From: Candidatus Babeliales bacterium
GTDB lineage: Bacteria > Babelota > Babeliae > Babelales > Vermiphilaceae
Length of the DNA stretch: 10,257 nt
Reading direction: 5' to 3'
NCBI GenBank assembly: GCA_044451405.1
Contig: JBIOKB010000030.1
Coordinates: 1-10,257, forward strand
Positions 1-6,322 of the stretch are shown here, piece after piece (position 1 is the stretch's first letter; every line of letters begins with the position of its first letter). The notes beneath the pieces are model-generated. The model was not told the DNA's origin. It saw nothing but the letters and a program-made list of their open reading frames with translations, and did not search any database. The position numbers and the translations under genes are program-made.

Positions 1-138
1 CGGGATTTTATTGGACAAGGGTTTACCTTGTGTCGCGATGCGGCAGAGAAGCGGCACGTGTTGGAACGCATGGGATTATCTGCACAACACATAGATAACA
101 TTATTGCTGAATCTCATGCCGTGTGTAAGTTAGAGTAG
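1..138 (+). CDS. 3' end of an unidentified protein entering from the left edge (…RDFIGQGFTLCRDAAEKRHVLERMGLSAQHIDNIIAESHAVCKLE*)
   Basis: Frame +1 is open from base 1 to TAG at 136-138 and reads as plausible helical protein. It overlaps the 3' end of the convergent ORF 114-1178 by 25 nt. No family recognised. Confidence 0.5.
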   Translation, partial: RDFIGQGFTLCRDAAEKRHVLERMGLSAQHIDNIIAESHAVCKLE

Positions 139-1178
139 AATAATTTTGCCCAGGGTAACCCAAGTGTTGCTGCTAAGCTTGCAAAAGCAAGACGCGTACA
201 ACATTGTTTTCTGCGATTTGCAGCTGTTCGTTCTTGTTTAATTTCAGCTAAATCATACATGTTTTGTAGGTTCACCCGCATACTCGTAGGCAATGATTTA
301 TGAGTTCTGAATTGTTCTGGAGTAAGATGTATTTCTGCAGTGTTGCGTTCTGCAAGATTACGTGCTCGTGTATGATACAAGTTTGTTATGTATTTAAGTT
401 GTTTATCAGATAACTTTTCAAGTTCTGCAAATTTTGCATCATGAACTTTAAACAGCGTAGTACCATTTGAGTAGTAAAGCGCATAAAATTGGTTACGTGA
501 TGATAAAAAATGCATTGGTTGTCGCTGTGTAGAAAGTAGAGGGGTTAGCTGAACATCTGTTCCTGTATTTCGGTGACCATTAACAACTGAATACATAAAT
601 CTGATGAAGGGAGCACCTTCATAACTAATTCTACGTTCTCCTTCCCAATATGATGAACCCATATAATAGAGTTTATCAGCTAACGCAATAGTAGCTGGAA
701 GTTCGCCAGTAGCTACCCATAACTCTCTGAGCCGATGAATCTCATCAAGTGTTACTCTGTTTATTTTCATCTGTGCTATACGATCGAAAATTAATCCATC
801 GTCTACCCACTCAATAACTGCAGGAATAAGTTGCTCCATATTCATTCCCACAAATCGTTTTTTGCGATTCTCTTCATCTGCAAAACTCCAAATGTGCTCT
901 TGAACATTGGTAGGTAATAAAGCTGCTGCTGTGCGAGCTCCTTCTAAAGAACCTGTATTTTTTGCAACTGCATGCGCTATAATTTCTTCACTCTGTTCTG
1001 CTATCGCATCGCGCGCAGCTATAACATCCAAATCTTCTTTCAATTCTTCATCTGTAGCGAATGCACTTCGCTCCATTTTTGTTTTTCGCTCTTTTTGAAA
1101 TTGAGCGTCTTCATCCATGGCATATAATCCCGGGATAAAAATAAATAGACCAAGCATTAATTTAAATAAAAATTTCAT
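114..1178 (-). CDS. Hypothetical exported protein (354 aa): signal peptide, F-box-like motif, C-terminal hydrophobic anchor; putative host-directed effector
   Basis: Long ORF. Sec-like N-terminus MKFLFKLMLGLFIFIPGLYA|MD, motif LLPTNVQEHIWSF (aa 87-99) and hydrophobic tail LAFASLAATLGLPW. Its start overlaps the upstream gene's stop (ATGA, 1175-1178). Confidence 0.85.
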   Translation of the reverse strand: MKFLFKLMLGLFIFIPGLYAMDEDAQFQKERKTKMERSAFATDEELKEDLDVIAARDAIAEQSEEIIAHAVAKNTGSLEGARTAAALLPTNVQEHIWSFADEENRKKRFVGMNMEQLIPAVIEWVDDGLIFDRIAQMKINRVTLDEIHRLRELWVATGELPATIALADKLYYMGSSYWEGERRISYEGAPFIRFMYSVVNGHRNTGTDVQLTPLLSTQRQPMHFLSSRNQFYALYYSNGTTLFKVHDAKFAELEKLSDKQLKYITNLYHTRARNLAERNTAEIHLTPEQFRTHKSLPTSMRVNLQNMYDLAEIKQERTAANRRKQCCTRLAFASLAATLGLPWAKLFYSNLHTA

Positions 1179-2065
1179 GATAATTTTCCCTGTTGACGTA
1201 ATTGGTCAAATAACCATTTAAATTCGGTAAATAGCTCATCAAGTCTAGGACCATGGATATATGCAACTACAAGATCATCTACACCTCGAGTAAACGCATC
1301 TGAACGATGTGCAACAAGAGCTTGCTTTATGCGTTTACGATGTTCATCAAAGGCAAGAAGCATCATGCATGCGCAAGCACGCTTGTCATCGCTAGAATGT
1401 TCCAGATTACGTAGGGATCTATCGTAAAGTGCATCAAGGCATGTCTGTCCATGTGAACTCGGTCCCGGGAAATTACGGATAGCACAATCAGCGCCACGTT
1501 CTAATAGCAAGAGCACAAAATCTTTAGGCGATGTTTTAGGACGCGATTCCATAAGACGATGGAGTGGTGTATCACCGCATCCATCTTGAGCATTAACATC
1601 CGCTCCATGGTCAAGCAATAAACGAAAGCTTGGTATGCTTATTTTTTCCTGGTCAACCAAACTACAATACAAATGAAGAATAGTTCTTTTATCAAAATCG
1701 AAACTATTTATATTCGCTTTACTATCAAGTAATAATTTTAGAATGGCAGGATCAAAAGCATAGCGTATTGCTGTTCCACCGTACGATGTTCGTGCATTCA
1801 CATCAGCTTTTGCAACTAATAATTCCTGCACTTTTTCAATATCTTTATCGTCCACCATTGCTCGTCTGAGCTTATCTGCTTGCTCCGTTTGTTCTGGACT
1901 CTGTTTTATTAATTGACTTCTTGCCGCATTAACAGTATCTATTCTCTCATTTTGTTGCGCACTTCGCGCTCTTTTAGTTTCTTGCTCTTTATCAAATTGT
2001 TTGTCCATGGCATACAGCCCGGGGGTCAGAAGTAATCCGAGTATTAATTTACCTATAATTTTCAT
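1175..2065 (-). CDS. Ankyrin-repeat protein with N-terminal signal peptide (296 aa)
   Basis: About 4-5 ankyrin repeats: LLVAKADVNARTSYGGTAI, LLLDSKANINSFDFDKRTILH, LLLDHGADVNAQDGCGDTPLH, LLLERGAD…GQTCLD. Signal-like MKIIGKLILGLLLTPGLYA|MD. AGGAGG Shine-Dalgarno just upstream. Confidence 0.92.
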   Translation of the reverse strand: MKIIGKLILGLLLTPGLYAMDKQFDKEQETKRARSAQQNERIDTVNAARSQLIKQSPEQTEQADKLRRAMVDDKDIEKVQELLVAKADVNARTSYGGTAIRYAFDPAILKLLLDSKANINSFDFDKRTILHLYCSLVDQEKISIPSFRLLLDHGADVNAQDGCGDTPLHRLMESRPKTSPKDFVLLLLERGADCAIRNFPGPSSHGQTCLDALYDRSLRNLEHSSDDKRACACMMLLAFDEHRKRIKQALVAHRSDAFTRGVDDLVVAYIHGPRLDELFTEFKWLFDQLRQQGKLS

Positions 2066-2111: not shown

Positions 2112-2140
2112 ATTATATTTCTTATTTGTAATAATGTAAA
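2112..2140 (-). promoter_or_regulatory. Sigma70-like promoter for the ankyrin/hypothetical operon
   Basis: On the - strand: TTTACA (2140-2135), 17 bp spacer, TATAAT (2117-2112). Near-consensus and 46 nt upstream of the start codon. Confidence 0.65.
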
Positions 2141-2262: not shown

Positions 2263-3336
2263 ATGAAATGTAAAACTATTGCTCTCCTCGTAGCAGGTAT
2301 CCAACTTTTCCAGCCACTTACATCACAGGCTATGCATACCGATAATCCCTATAAAACACTCGCTCATCTTGGTTTTATTGGAACAAGCCTTGGGGTTTTA
2401 GGCTCTTTCCTGGGTTTGCGCTATTACCAAAGTCAGCAGGCTGGCAAACAAGCAGCAGACGAGGTTAGGGATCAGTTACCTGGCGATGTACGCGGCATTA
2501 TAGGGTCATTTTTAGTAGGGGATGCTCCTCTTGCCCATGATGAAAAGCTTCAATTTTTACCCGCTATTTTACCTATCAACAAGAAGACCGTTGATACAGC
2601 TCTCCAAAAAACTATTGATGCAAATAAAAAGCGCATAGCCGCACTCAGATCAGAACTTGAAGCGCTACACGATCTTCTTGAAGGATTACAAACAAAATAC
2701 ACAGAACCTGTAGCTATTCCCCTGTATGCTCATGTACTTTCATCACGCATTGATCGCAATACACGAGAAATAGATCTTGCTGATATTCAGCGTAAAAATA
2801 TCCATGCGCAACTATTTATCAAAGATCAAACACCATTGCATACCATTCTTGGAGAACCGTTATTTCCCGGAGAAGTAGCGTTTATCGGTTACTCTGATGG
2901 CAGCGTTGACATCGAATTAACTGATGCAGACACTCAAATCATCAAAAATTTATCTGAAAAAGAACGTACCATGTTACGTACATTCTATGTACCACGCATT
3001 GATCACGGCATGACTGTATATCAAAAAACGTTAACGCGTAGAGAATGGTCTGCATTTCAAAGAGTTTTTAATGATGAAAAAAAGAGAACCTGTGTTAATC
3101 GGTATTACAATTTTCAAGTAGAAGGCGGTCAACATATTCCTAGATGGAAAGCTGCAATGTTTGGAGCAGTAGGGATAGCAATGTATTTGGGAGGTATAGC
3201 TATAATAACTAACTTCAGATGGCGGATAAAAATGCATAGAAAATATCCTGATTTTTATAAAATGCCTTCATGTACCTGGCTTGATGTCCCGATTCTAGAA
3301 ATATACAAACTCTTATCTGGGACATACCAAAAATAA
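2263..3336 (+). CDS. Hypothetical exported/membrane protein (357 aa): signal peptide, TM helix, F-box-like motif, coiled segment, C-terminal TM; distant paralog of 114-1178
   Basis: Signal-like MKCKTIALLVAGIQLFQPLTSQA|MH. Hydrophobic aa ~33-52 and ~295-316. LPGDVRGIIGSFL (aa 72-84). Ungapped similarity to the C-terminal domain of 114-1178. Confidence 0.85.
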   Translation: MKCKTIALLVAGIQLFQPLTSQAMHTDNPYKTLAHLGFIGTSLGVLGSFLGLRYYQSQQAGKQAADEVRDQLPGDVRGIIGSFLVGDAPLAHDEKLQFLPAILPINKKTVDTALQKTIDANKKRIAALRSELEALHDLLEGLQTKYTEPVAIPLYAHVLSSRIDRNTREIDLADIQRKNIHAQLFIKDQTPLHTILGEPLFPGEVAFIGYSDGSVDIELTDADTQIIKNLSEKERTMLRTFYVPRIDHGMTVYQKTLTRREWSAFQRVFNDEKKRTCVNRYYNFQVEGGQHIPRWKAAMFGAVGIAMYLGGIAIITNFRWRIKMHRKYPDFYKMPSCTWLDVPILEIYKLLSGTYQK

Positions 3337-3370
3337 ACATAAACACCTATAAATTTTCTTGAACTATGTA

Positions 3371-3399
3371 TTCTCACAATCCTAATATCTCGGTACACT
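3371..3399 (+). promoter_or_regulatory. Possible promoter for rodA
   Basis: TTCTCA (3371-3376), 17 bp spacer, TACACT (3394-3399). Confidence 0.3.
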
Positions 3400-3433
3400 A
3401 ACGAGGTCTCCAAACCCCTTTAAGCTAAAAACC

Positions 3434-4543
3434 ATGTTTCTATTAGACCGCCGTTACCTTGCCTCCTTTGACTGGATGAGCCTACTCATCAGCATCACCC
3501 TTGCAAGTATTGGCGTTATTTTTGTTTTTAGTGCTACGTATACACAAGAAGAACCCTATTCAATTTTTTTCAAAAAACAGCTTTTTGGCGTCCTCTCTGG
3601 GCTTATTATTTATGGCATTTTTTGCTTTACCGATTTTAGAACGCTCACGCGCTGGGGGTACTTTGCCTACTACGGCGTTATTCTTCTCCTCATTTTTACG
3701 ATTATTAAAGGCAGTATTGGCATGGGTGGACAGCGGTGGATTAATCTTGGATTTATGAAATTTCAACCATCTGAGTTAGCAAAATTATTATTCCCTGCAT
3801 ACACCATCTATTATCTGTACACCGGAAACAATCATCAGCGCCTTACCATGCATGATTTTACTCCCGTGCTTATTATGCTTGGCATCAGCTTTATTCTTAT
3901 CAGAAAGCAACCTGATTTAGGAACCGCACTTCTTTTATTATTTTCAGCCATTATTTTGTTGTGGCTTGCGGGGATTAATCGTGCTTTTTTTATTATAACC
4001 ATGAGCATTGGGTGTATTGGTGCACCTATTTTGTGGAGCAGTTTAAAAGAGTATCAAAAGCAGCGCATCTTGGTATTTTTGGGGCACGGCGACGTGCGCA
4101 AAGAGCGCTACCAGCTTGAACAATCAAAAATTGCTATCGGTTCCGGTGGATTATGGGGCAAAGGATTTTTACAAGGCACCCAAAACAAATTACAATTTTT
4201 GCCCGAAAGCCGCACTGATTTTATTTTTTCTGTCATTGCAGAAGAGATGGGGTTGTGTGGCACGCTCTGCATTTTAGTGCTCTACATTTTATTGTTTGTG
4301 CGCTTACTCACGATTATCGCCACCATTCGCTCGCTGAGCATTCAGTTACTTGCACTCGGTGTTGTCCTTCATATTATGCTATCAACATTAATTAACATCG
4401 GCATGGTTATCGGCTTGCTCCCCATTGTTGGCATACCGCTACCATTTATTAGTTATGGATTGAGCAACTTGTGGATCACCTTTGCAAGCCTTGGCTGGTT
4501 TAATAGCATTGCCATGAGGCGTTTTTATATTAATAATACGTAA
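3434..4543 (+). CDS. rodA: Rod shape-determining protein RodA (SEDS-family peptidoglycan glycosyltransferase)
   Basis: SEDS motifs GGQRWINLG, FQPSELAK, QPDLGTA, YQLEQSKIAIGSGG, FLPESRTDFIFSVIAEEMG, GIPLPFISYG, with many TM helices. YQKQRI…FL and GTQ..LQFLPE are RodA-like rather than FtsW-like. Confidence 0.9.
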   Translation: MFLLDRRYLASFDWMSLLISITLASIGVIFVFSATYTQEEPYSIFFKKQLFGVLSGLIIYGIFCFTDFRTLTRWGYFAYYGVILLLIFTIIKGSIGMGGQRWINLGFMKFQPSELAKLLFPAYTIYYLYTGNNHQRLTMHDFTPVLIMLGISFILIRKQPDLGTALLLLFSAIILLWLAGINRAFFIITMSIGCIGAPILWSSLKEYQKQRILVFLGHGDVRKERYQLEQSKIAIGSGGLWGKGFLQGTQNKLQFLPESRTDFIFSVIAEEMGLCGTLCILVLYILLFVRLLTIIATIRSLSIQLLALGVVLHIMLSTLINIGMVIGLLPIVGIPLPFISYGLSNLWITFASLGWFNSIAMRRFYINNT

Positions 4544-4607: not shown

Positions 4608-4973
4608 ATGGCTGAATATAATATTAAGAAAATCCTTGAAGTAATCTTTTATGCCGAACTTTCTGGAAATGAACCAGTACGCGAATGGTTGAAAGAACTA
4701 AAAGTAGAGGATAGAAAAAAAATTGGGAATGACATTATGGTTGTTGAATACAATTGGCCAGTTGGCATGCCATTAGTAAAGCCGCTAACTAAAGGATTAC
4801 GGGAAGTCAGAACTACTTTGGACAATAGAATTGCACGAGTAATTTTTTTGATAAAAAACAAGAACATGGTACTTCTTCATGGATTTATCAAAAAAACAGA
4901 ACAAACTCCTATACAAGACCTAAGGCTAGCAGAAAAAAGAGCTTCTCTATTTTTAAATAAAAGAAAGAGATAA
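4608..4973 (+). CDS. Type II toxin, RelE/ParE superfamily (HigB / phage Gp49-like)
   Basis: Family-typical FY…SGNEPVREWL, WPVGMPLVKPL..GLREVR, IARVIF, MVLLHGFIKKTEQTP..DL.LA. Sits directly upstream of an HTH gene. Confidence 0.9.
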   Translation: MAEYNIKKILEVIFYAELSGNEPVREWLKELKVEDRKKIGNDIMVVEYNWPVGMPLVKPLTKGLREVRTTLDNRIARVIFLIKNKNMVLLHGFIKKTEQTPIQDLRLAEKRASLFLNKRKR

Positions 4974-4975
4974 AA

Positions 4976-5266
4976 ATGAAAAAGAAAAAAAATCCACATT
5001 TAGGTTCAACTTTCGAATCATTTCTCAAAGAAGAAGGTATCTTTGATGAAGTACGAGCAGGTGCAATGAAACAAATTATTGCACAGCGAATTTTAGCGGA
5101 AATGGAAAAGAAACATATTACCCAAACTGATCTTGCAAAACTCATGAAAACAAGTCGAGCCGCTATAAAACGACTTTTAGATCCTAAAAATGTCTCAGTA
5201 ACATTGCTTACATTAAACAAAGCAGCTGCAGCCCTTGGCAGAGAAATAGAAATAAAAATTAAATAG
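4976..5266 (+). CDS. XRE-family HTH antitoxin (HigA-like)
   Basis: NPHLGSTFESFLKEEG N-terminus and HTH ITQTDLAKLMKTSRAAIKRLLDP…VTLLTLNKAAAALG. Starts 2 nt after the toxin stop. Confidence 0.9.
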   Translation: MKKKKNPHLGSTFESFLKEEGIFDEVRAGAMKQIIAQRILAEMEKKHITQTDLAKLMKTSRAAIKRLLDPKNVSVTLLTLNKAAAALGREIEIKIK

Positions 5267-5282
5267 CATAAGAAAGTCCATC

Positions 5283-6305
5283 ATGGATGAAATGCAAAGC
5301 CTTGGCGCCTTATCGTTACACGAAACCGTTGAAGAGCGCTCGCACGATTTTTGTCCAAAAACCTTTGATGACTATTTAGGACAAAAAGAACTTAAAGAAA
5401 AACTACACGTCTACACACAAGCAGCAAAAATGCGCAACGAGCCGTTAGATCACTTGCTCCTTTTTGGCCCTCCTGGACTTGGCAAAACAACGTTATCGCA
5501 AATTATGGCGCACGTTATGGGTGTTGGCATTAAAATTTGCAGCGGCCCCATGATGGAACGCACCGGCGATTTAGTTGCAATTCTTTCCAGCCTTGAACCA
5601 AAAGATATATTATTCATTGATGAAATTCATCGCATGCCCGCCACCGTAGAAGAAGTGCTGTATAGCGCTATGGAACATTTTCGTGTCGATGTCATCATCG
5701 GCCAGGGCGCTGGCGCAAAATCAATTAATTTGCCGATTAATCCATTTACACTTGTTGGTGCAACCACAAAAAGCGGCTCTATCTCTGCACCCTTACGCTC
5801 CCGTTTTGGCATTAGTGAGCGGCTAGAATTTTATAATGATGAAGATTTACAGGCCATTATTTTACAGAGCGCCCGCTTTCTTGAACTACCCTTAGCTGAT
5901 GAACCAGCACTGACTATTGCACGCTGTGCACGGGGCACGCCACGTATTGCAAAAAAATTACTCCGCCGCGTACGTGATTTTGCACAAGTTACCAATAAGA
6001 ATATTGCTGATTTAGCCCTGGTGCAGGAAGCACTCCAGTTTTTAGGTATTAACAACGAAGGGCTTACCAAAATTGATATCATGCTCCTGCGCACCATCGT
6101 TGAACAATTTAACGGCGGCCCAGTCGGACTTGAAACGTTAGCGTCAGTCATCGGGGAAGATAAAGATACTATTGAAGCGGTCTATGAACCCTTTTTACTC
6201 CAGAAGGGCTATCTTGAAAAAACAGCACGCGGGCGGCAGATACCCTATAAGAGATTGCCTCTCTTAAAGCAGCAGTTCCTAGGGCAAGGGCATTTGCCTA
6301 CTTAA
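5283..6305 (+). CDS. ruvB: Holliday junction branch migration helicase RuvB
   Basis: LDHLLLFGPPGLGKTTL (Walker A), ILFIDEIHR (Walker B), PFTLVGATT, PLRSRFG, RGTPRIA..LLRRVRD, GGPVGL, YEPFLLQ.G…TARGR. Confidence 0.98.
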   Translation: MDEMQSLGALSLHETVEERSHDFCPKTFDDYLGQKELKEKLHVYTQAAKMRNEPLDHLLLFGPPGLGKTTLSQIMAHVMGVGIKICSGPMMERTGDLVAILSSLEPKDILFIDEIHRMPATVEEVLYSAMEHFRVDVIIGQGAGAKSINLPINPFTLVGATTKSGSISAPLRSRFGISERLEFYNDEDLQAIILQSARFLELPLADEPALTIARCARGTPRIAKKLLRRVRDFAQVTNKNIADLALVQEALQFLGINNEGLTKIDIMLLRTIVEQFNGGPVGLETLASVIGEDKDTIEAVYEPFLLQKGYLEKTARGRQIPYKRLPLLKQQFLGQGHLPT

Positions 6306-6322
6306 TCCATTATGGGTACTAT
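6294..6322 (+). promoter_or_regulatory. Sigma70-like promoter for the 106-aa orphan, overlapping the ruvB 3' end
   Basis: TTGCCT (6294-6299), 17 bp spacer, TACTAT (6317-6322). Confidence 0.55.

Follow-up and report, generated by a model that had tools for sequence, protein, structure and literature searches.

Two operon neighbours and their common N-terminus

The window analysed here is a complete contig (C30, 10,257 nucleotides (nt)) of a Candidatus Babeliales genome, G000, which comprises 1.02 Mb in 89 contigs and is estimated to be 95.7% complete. Two overlapping genes on its reverse strand, called B and A in their operon order, encode proteins that begin with a common N-terminal leader, composed of a Sec-type signal peptide and a charged stretch behind it. 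The coordinates of both genes, of the elements of their leaders and of the related loci elsewhere in G000 are collected in Table 1. Proteome-wide counts refer to the 1039 crudely called genes of this genome; P00xx denotes collected homologs, and A_C4, Ank1_C4 and Ank2_C4 are genes on contig C4 of G000.

Table 1. Coordinates of the two operon genes, their leader elements and related loci (window positions unless a locus is named; AF2, AlphaFold2)
Feature	Position	Strand	Remarks
Gene A	114..1178	-	354 amino acids; second operon gene; undescribed superfamily; predicted signal peptide and C-terminal hydrophobic helix
A leader	984..1178	-	65 amino acids; signal peptide, motif helix, following helix
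A signal peptide, residues 1-20	1119..1178	-	PGLYA, then Met-Asp; predicted cleavage site
A motif copy, residues 25-39	1062..1106	-	AQFQKERKTKMERSA; motif-only model E 8.4e-4
A C-terminal hydrophobic segment, residues ~328-348	135..197	-	after RRK; conserved in homologs; within AF2 helix 311-353
ATGA overlap, B stop / A start	1175..1178	-	suggests translational coupling
Gene B	1175..2065	-	296 amino acids; ankyrin-repeat protein, predicted exported; first operon gene
B leader	1892..2065	-	58 amino acids as first read; homologous stretch probably to ~residue 77 (nt ~1835)
B signal peptide, residues 1-19	2009..2065	-	PGLYA, then Met-Asp; predicted cleavage site
B motif copy, residues 23-36	1958..1999	-	QFDKEQETKRARSA; motif-only model E 5.4e-5 (six-frame genome)
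Promoter-like TTTACA-17-TATAAT	2112..2140	-	47 nt upstream of B start; 11/12 consensus matches
Gene C	2263..3336	+	divergent from B; distant member of A superfamily, motif-less
Ankyrin-ankyrin-A operon, L010 (G000:C4:31486-34788)	genes 2462-3301, 1827-2465, 706-1830	-	4-nt overlaps
C2H2 zinc-finger operon, L061 (G000:C25:1-3400)	1-284 (cut by contig end), 281-1435, 1432-2493, 2490-3332	-	ATGA-coupled
WD40 protein, L058 (G000:C39)	5023-6603	+	signal peptide
GNAT acetyltransferase, L059 (G000:C62)	3163-3744	+	signal peptide

The original prediction described the two open reading frames and their leaders of about 60 residues correctly. In a BLASTP comparison, residues 16-65 of A align with residues 15-58 of B with 24 of 51 positions identical (E 7e-7), and this leader-only segment is the sole significant one, the next having an E value of 31. 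The likeness is confined to the first 58-65 residues and, as had been proposed, extends past the signal peptide, running for ~40 residues beyond the hydrophobic core. Comparison of the 65-residue leader of A with the whole 1.02-Mb genome left two matches out of four candidates, A itself and B (E 2.5e-7), and in an all-against-all comparison of the first 70 residues of the 1039 gene products the A-B pair reached E 4.4e-11 with the bodies unmatched. At the DNA level the similarity starts at the ATG and amounts to ~70% identity. Upstream of the ATG no similarity between A and B was found; A is preceded there by the 3' end of B.

Behind the leader, B matches five ankyrin families of Pfam (E 4e-14 to 8e-6), with bit scores, given here with the cut-offs in brackets, of 52.9 (22.7) for Ank_4, 49.9 (27.3) for Ank_2, 47.4 (21.1) for Ank and 41 (27) for Ank_5, and gene A has no Pfam match at E <= 0.1. 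A and B are not full-length homologs because the similarity stops after the leader, where B continues as an ankyrin protein and A without a Pfam match; the claim that the two are otherwise unrelated is therefore borne out. An assembly artefact behind the shared leaders was considered and ruled out: the leader copies are 70-90% identical in DNA and not identical, and independent orthologs exist.

Both signal peptides show a plain three-region architecture. A carries Lys at positions 2 and 6, then LMLGLFIFI and PG, and B carries Lys at the same positions, then LILGLLLT and PG; both pass a crude scan for n-, h- and c-regions, a liberal heuristic that passes 356 of the 1039 genes, about one third. 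The predicted cut site has Ala at -1 and Leu at -3 in both proteins. Leucine at -3 of a signal peptidase site is tolerated, not typical. Neither leader contains a lipobox cysteine.

A separate observation concerns the residues at the end of these peptides. The pattern [AGSC]-Met-[DEQN] ends 40 of the 356 signal-peptide-like N-termini; it occurs in 19 of the 683 other proteins when the same residue window is taken, and a control window gives 3 of 331 (Fisher p 1e-7). At the locus it occupies residues 20-22 of A and 19-21 of B. One idea, and only an idea, is that a Met after the predicted signal peptide might fix the N-terminus carried into the host.

Aligned N-termini comprise three elements. 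The signal peptide is followed, 1-50 residues on, by the motif QFxKEQE[ST]K with a stretch of small or basic residues after it, and then by a short segment of the form hydrophobic-hydrophobic-x-A-A/F-x-x-L. In the AF2 model of A, helices in the leader span residues 3-11, 23-37, which covers the motif, and 43-75, with a predicted local distance difference test (pLDDT) score of 50-77 there. On B, positions 1-91 of the leader model match nt 1829-2065, and positions 8-88 of the superfamily model match residues 1-65. Ahead of the first ankyrin repeat, B has part of the longer A-type linker (QSPEQTEQADKL; compare P0003-P0005); the other ankyrin paralogs have a different charged stretch that runs straight into the first repeat, and no A-type linker. 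The consensus originally drawn from A and B was essentially right, and it was its extent that fell short, as the homology in B reaches to about residue 77 once longer A relatives are aligned.

The promoter-like site precedes B only and not A; it is a consensus match, and the region has 11 sites of this kind where 8.6 would be expected. A look-up of public sequencing runs over nt 100-2300, RNA included, returned none. Overlaps of 4 nt, as between B and A, also link the three genes of the C4 operon described below.

Distribution of the leader and the family of gene A

To assess portability we used a model of the A superfamily, in which no ankyrin, WD40 or GNAT sequence is included, at E <= 0.01. 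It matches 8 of the 1039 genes, three of them members of the family (A, A_C4 and gene C) and five by the leader only: B (E 7.8e-8), a GNAT acetyltransferase (E 1.4e-4), a WD40 protein (E 6.9e-4), Ank2_C4 (E 1.5e-3) and Ank1_C4 (E 3.2e-3). In the WD40 protein the alignment runs from the signal peptide through a motif-like stretch to the segment behind it; scored by the motif alone, the protein ranks 3 of 9439 six-frame segments and falls short of significance (E 3.5), and no orthologs of it were found in 79 family genomes at E <= 1e-10. Taken together, the leader stands on two clear body types, A-family and ankyrin, and on two weak ones, WD40 and GNAT, in 7 of the 1039 genes.

The leader was also searched for in 261 genomes, which are G000 and 260 others, make up the whole phylum in the collection and served for both the phylum-level and the order-level searches. 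Matches at E <= 1e-3 occur in 51 of them, nearly all over signal-peptide positions only. Longer matches in G093, G102, G248, G014 and G185 were inspected and set aside, since behind the signal peptide they have charged or polar sequence but no motif. The leader scores 62.9 bits in A and 60.2 bits in B, and the best score outside G000 is 28.1 bits; none of the other 260 genomes yielded the full leader. Word-indexed searches with the leader alone (residues 1-66 of B and 1-62 of P0030) returned the query itself only. The leader is thus a real and separable module, but it is rare, being neither genome-wide nor phylum-wide. Of the portable bipartite tag originally proposed, the separable module, its conserved post-cleavage motif and its presence on at least two unrelated bodies hold, and the breadth of use that a tag implies does not.

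Gene A belongs to a small and unannotated family. Among 5.8 billion clustered proteins it has four close homologs (P0002-P0005, 29-56% identical), and each of the four opens with the signal peptide and charged stretch found in A. When 1.84 billion representatives were searched with a profile, 45 proteins were collected at E <= 1e-3, most of which have the C-terminal domain of A, a signal-peptide-like N-terminus and a C-terminal hydrophobic segment, the last presumably a membrane anchor. No consistent Pfam match was found in 12 tested or 32 aligned members of the superfamily. The A family proper occurs in 1 of 80 family genomes, to which two weak matches confined to the C-terminal part may be added. 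A scan of contigs with the A-family alignment gave one spurious match of 34 residues in Pseudomonas, and scans of metagenome contigs with A5 and with P0004 found nothing.

The AF2 model of A has a pLDDT of 82.9 with an alignment of 32 rows; with 6 rows the value was 46 and the model unusable. Foldseek found no match to this model in the PDB at E <= 0.001, a wide VIA-align search gave a best Z of 4.8 with helical hairpins only, and the protein atlas contained no usable feature match (template modelling score <= 0.28). The stretch LPTxIQExIWSFA of A resembles an F-box to the eye only: at E <= 5, neither A nor any of 32 superfamily members matched an F-box family, and the fold searches gave no support either.

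A model of the motif alone matches 17 of the 47 proteins collected, 15 of them of the A superfamily and two of them ankyrin proteins (B and P0012), a count that is largely circular, as 16 of the 17 were picked by eye for building the model and P0027 alone is independent. The 15 superfamily proteins have bodies only 21-32% identical to A, yet they keep the motif and a similar signal peptide. Among themselves the motif-bearing members are 14-49% identical in their bodies, and their signal peptides are 50-90% identical within the subgroup of the MKSxIK type. Among ankyrin proteins, by comparison, the motif occurs in B and its ortholog P0012 only. The leader therefore appears to be the native N-terminus of the A family, since distant members keep it while among the ankyrin proteins only these two do, and the superfamily seems to be restricted to this lineage.

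Gene C, which is divergent from B, matches P0033 (BLASTP E 3e-23), itself one of the superfamily proteins from the profile search, and gives a weak hhalign result against the close A family. Its own E value of 2e-44 to the superfamily model is not independent, because C is part of the A9 training alignment. Its N-terminus differs from that of A in having two hydrophobic segments and lacking the motif. Of the first four genes of the window, three belong to the same effector-like set.

Two further sequence patterns were noted in passing. The gene upstream of the GNAT gene (C62, 2029-3144) has MDEPFMCKVPR after its signal peptide, in common with a gene on contig C38. The pattern [LV]xx[IV]VxEYxxG lies near the C-termini of the ankyrin proteins (residues ~258-270 of B; also Ank1 and Ank2) and, in several relatives (L057 G185:C17 genes), immediately ahead of the WD40 repeats, and it might be an F-box-like adaptor segment.

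Probable recurrent exchange of 5' ends

With a richer leader model, a second operon was found on contig C4, in which two ankyrin genes and an A-type gene have a common, locus-specific leader. Within an operon the leaders are alike and the bodies unrelated: 23 of 37 leader positions are identical between A and B, 30 of 40 between A_C4 and Ank1_C4, and 21 of 40 between A_C4 and Ank2_C4. Between the two loci, proteins with related bodies have less similar leaders, with 13 of 34 positions identical for A and A_C4 (bodies 34%) and 16 of 37 for B and Ank1_C4 (bodies 35%). Leader identity tracks the locus and not the body.

The comparison of A_C4 with its partial ortholog P0007 points to the origin of this pattern. 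The two are ~95% identical from residue 57 of A_C4 and residue 46 of P0007 onwards, and unlike before that point. P0007 has the A-type motif, and A_C4 has instead the ankyrin-type stretch and the first ankyrin helix of its neighbours. In the signal peptides, 18 of 21 residues are identical between A_C4 and Ank1_C4 and 19 of 21 between P0007 and Ank2_C4, as against 11 of 21 between A_C4 and P0007 themselves. In the DNA, the first ~165 nt of A_C4 combine 5' sequence from Ank1 and from Ank2 in a mosaic. Such a pattern indicates that about the first 56 residues of A_C4 have been overwritten by the 5' ends of the ankyrin genes. A related disagreement is seen in P0004 and P0005, which lie on one contig of 7721 nt and are 73% identical in their N-terminal parts (102 aligned residues) and 38% identical in their bodies.

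Synonymous distances (dS) show the same discrepancy. In the C4 operon the dS of the leaders is 0.43-0.62, against ~1.4 for the bodies, and in a zinc-finger operon on contig C25 the values are 0.53-0.72 for the leaders and 0.9-1.7 for the bodies. What is commonly expected of leader-sharing families is thus seen here, namely one leader on non-homologous bodies, disagreement between leader and body, and mosaic tracts. Signal peptides normally diverge fast, as the original prediction pointed out; a tag is nevertheless not the only explanation for a conserved one, since recombination accounts for a good part of the conservation.

The leader on B is no recent acquisition. For the A/B leader pair, dS is 0.96-1.17, the nonsynonymous distance (dN) is 0.24-0.33 and dN/dS is 0.25-0.28 (Nei-Gojobori, 37-57 codons, a small sample), and P0012, an ortholog 52% identical to B over its full length, has the leader too. 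The graft on B is old, since dS is about 1 and the ortholog also carries the leader, and it is under purifying selection. The alternative first offered for the likeness, a scar of a 5' duplication that captured a new body, is right in so far as 5' ends have been exchanged between operon neighbours, as the C4 operon and the pair A_C4/P0007 indicate. The leader is no inert scar, however, because dN/dS is ~0.25 and the ortholog of B retains it.

The proteins of the C25 operon deserve a separate mention. They match C2H2 zinc fingers in Pfam (E 1e-15 to 1e-30). Their N-termini carry signal peptides and share a leader that ends in SSAMEEA, and three of them end in EDGNL; from their sequences they look like exported transcription-factor-like proteins. 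In related genomes, tandem arrays (L006 G026:C2, L008 G008:C3 and L057 G185:C17) encode small exported or WD40 proteins whose leaders are near-identical within each array, which suggests that homogenisation of leaders in tandem arrays is common across the group.

Origin of the common leader and alternatives

We consider it probable that the leader is a module grafted at the N-terminus, that repeated recombination among the 5' ends of operon neighbours has spread it, and that selection has kept it. The common N-terminus of A and B would be one homologous module of ~60-75 residues, consisting of a Sec-type signal peptide presumably cut after PGLYA, the QFxKEQE[ST]K helix 1-50 residues beyond that predicted cut, and a further short segment. 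B, which lies directly upstream of A, may have taken the module through gene conversion or unequal exchange of the neighbouring 5' ends, so that it replaced an ankyrin-type leader. The exchange would be old, and purifying selection would then have retained the module in B as well. Similar 5' exchanges seem to recur in the lineage in both directions. The signal peptide presumably routes A and B through Sec, and the motif may be an autonomous element, with a role in sorting, second-step export or a host-side function, that lies outside the fold of either protein.

Several points weigh against this interpretation. The breakpoints are visible at the protein level only for P0007, P0012, P0004 and P0005, and at the DNA level within G000 alone. 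The dS and dN/dS figures rest on 28-57 codons only, and codon constraints on signal peptides could lower dS without any recombination. Constraint on the leader at the protein level could likewise mimic part of the locus pattern, although it leaves the swap between A_C4 and P0007 unexplained. The direction of transfer into B is read from the distribution of the motif rather than from a rooted tree, and the motif count, as said above, is largely circular. The genome is an assembly of 89 contigs, though the leader copies are only 70-90% identical in DNA. Finally, cleavage of the signal peptide, export and anchoring in the membrane are predicted.

The tag of the original prediction, in its strongest form, would make the signal peptide and the QFxKEQE[ST]K helix a dedicated two-part address, read first by Sec and then by type II secretion, vesicle sorting or host entry and put on various effector-like bodies, and recombination would merely spread it. 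The motif is indeed far better conserved than the bodies, and an unrelated ankyrin body retains it in two organisms, with dN/dS ~0.25; the superfamily model picks exactly five leader-only matches among the 1039 genes. Moreover, the short spacing between the predicted cut and the motif varies, as it does for the host-targeting motifs of oomycete effectors, and Sec-dependent delivery of host-directed proteins would be expected in a genome that has two secretins and yielded no core protein of type III or type IV secretion. However, the leader occurs in only 7 genes, against roughly 350 with signal-peptide-like N-termini, and the full leader did not turn up in the other 260 genomes of the phylum searched. 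The ankyrin leaders of C4 lack the motif proper, and the WD40 protein scores 28.3 bits with the full leader, no better than the signal-peptide-only matches elsewhere (28.1), and E 3.5 with the motif alone. We therefore find a dedicated tag rather unlikely.

A bolder version by analogy would see in the motif leader a host-targeting or second-step export leader, the bacterial counterpart of oomycete RxLR/CRN and Plasmodium PEXEL. Signal peptidase would then expose a fixed Met-Asp/Glu, and 5' recombination would move the leader among effector-like genes (ankyrin, WD40, GNAT and A-family). In keeping with such systems, a motif is found within ~50 residues after the signal peptide (17 of 47 proteins, of which 16 were used for the model), but it is not found on many unrelated bodies of the secretome. 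We regard this proposal as unlikely.

It is also conceivable that cooperating operon products need matched leaders, the helical segments of A and B pairing with each other or meeting one partner. Leaders are locus-specific in two separate operons of ankyrin and A-type genes, the pairing of these genes and their ATGA coupling are conserved between the two, and the leader segments are predicted to be helical. Synonymous sites too, however, are more alike in the leaders than in the bodies, which points to shared recent ancestry and not to protein-level selection alone, and the leader of P0007 past the signal peptide is unlike Ank1 and Ank2 of G000. Such a requirement for matched leaders seems very unlikely.

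That the likeness is a neutral remnant of a single partial duplication, or a chance resemblance of signal peptides, is hardly credible: strong matches within G000 are A and B only, and signal peptides of the lineage do resemble one another, giving matches at that level in 51 of the 261 genomes, but the E values of 7e-7 to 4e-11 are well past chance, the likeness runs ~40 residues beyond the hydrophobic core, the scores of A and B stand far above the 28.1 bits reached outside G000, and with dN/dS ~0.25 the leader is conserved in the ortholog of B and across the A family.

The grafted module that we favour has parallels in other organisms. The Erp proteins of Borrelia burgdorferi (OspE/OspF/Elp) combine one promoter, leader and sorting cassette with bodies of many origins (PMC10016077, available excerpts). 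As far as that account goes, the resemblance lies in one leader with the first mature residues on independently derived bodies, in frequent recombination and in small operons. The Erp cassette, in contrast, includes promoter and operator and a lipoprotein leader with a sorting sequence, and is carried by prophage plasmids; here the homology starts at the ATG, so that there is no counterpart of the Erp upstream homology box, the lipobox cysteine is absent, the genes are apparently chromosomal, and a motif of ~15 residues with a linker is shared.

In oomycetes, CRN and RxLR effectors have a signal peptide and a conserved N-terminal motif recombined onto diverse C-termini (PMC3726527; PMC3820680, in the parts available). 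The order of signal peptide, a short motif soon after it and a variable body is the same as here, and so is the occurrence of similar N-termini on unrelated C-termini through recombination. By these partial accounts, the oomycete systems differ in being eukaryotic, in having hundreds of members and the breakpoint HVLVVVP, and in the experimental support for host delivery, whereas the present case is a handful of bacterial genes without a defined breakpoint motif, known from sequence alone. Terminal reassortment of bacterial type III effectors (Stavrinides, Ma and Guttman 2006, as cited in the available text of PMC3726527) also recombines an N-terminal secretion-signal region onto new C-terminal domains in bacteria. 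Signals for type III secretion, however, are not cleaved Sec signals, and G000, which is 95.7% complete, gave no match to FHIPEP (type III) or VirB4 (type IV).

By its traits, G000 most likely belongs to Dependentiae (TM6). Two copies of gspD, together with components of type II secretion, are reported from every TM6 genome studied (PMC4776705), and in Chromulinavorax signal peptides were reported on 44% of the coding sequences and 78% of the ankyrin proteins (PMC6561590), both according to the excerpts available. Like the ankyrin proteins with signal peptides of these accounts, B has a Sec-type leader, in a genome of ~1 Mb that encodes ATP/ADP translocases and two secretins. Leaders common to unrelated neighbours, or a motif after the cleavage site, are not mentioned in the available portions of the two papers, and a full-text search of the Dependentiae literature, supplements aside, returned no description of such a leader and nothing on gene conversion in the group. 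The present case is new relative to the known examples of leader reassortment in that it is Sec-based with no type III or type IV core found, involves no upstream DNA, concerns neighbours that are presumably translationally coupled and carries a new motif.

The case bears on how Dependentiae deliver their many orphan, ankyrin and WD40 proteins to the host, with signal peptides abundant and no type III or type IV core found here. A whole N-terminal module, beyond the signal peptide alone, would have been exchanged between unrelated neighbours and then selected, which makes the motif a candidate sorting or targeting element. For annotation, likeness of leaders in these genomes reflects recombination and is no sign that the mature proteins are related.

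A few other open reading frames of the window may be mentioned. Two small ones are adjacent in a stretch of low G+C content (0.31), at 4608-4973 (+, 121 amino acids) and 4976-5266 (+, 96 amino acids); by their look we take them to be a candidate pair of the toxin-antitoxin type, and the first has a weak paralog on contig C15. Two orphan reading frames, at 8430-9002 (-) and 6365-6685 (+), match no Pfam family and have signal-peptide-like or hydrophobic N-termini.

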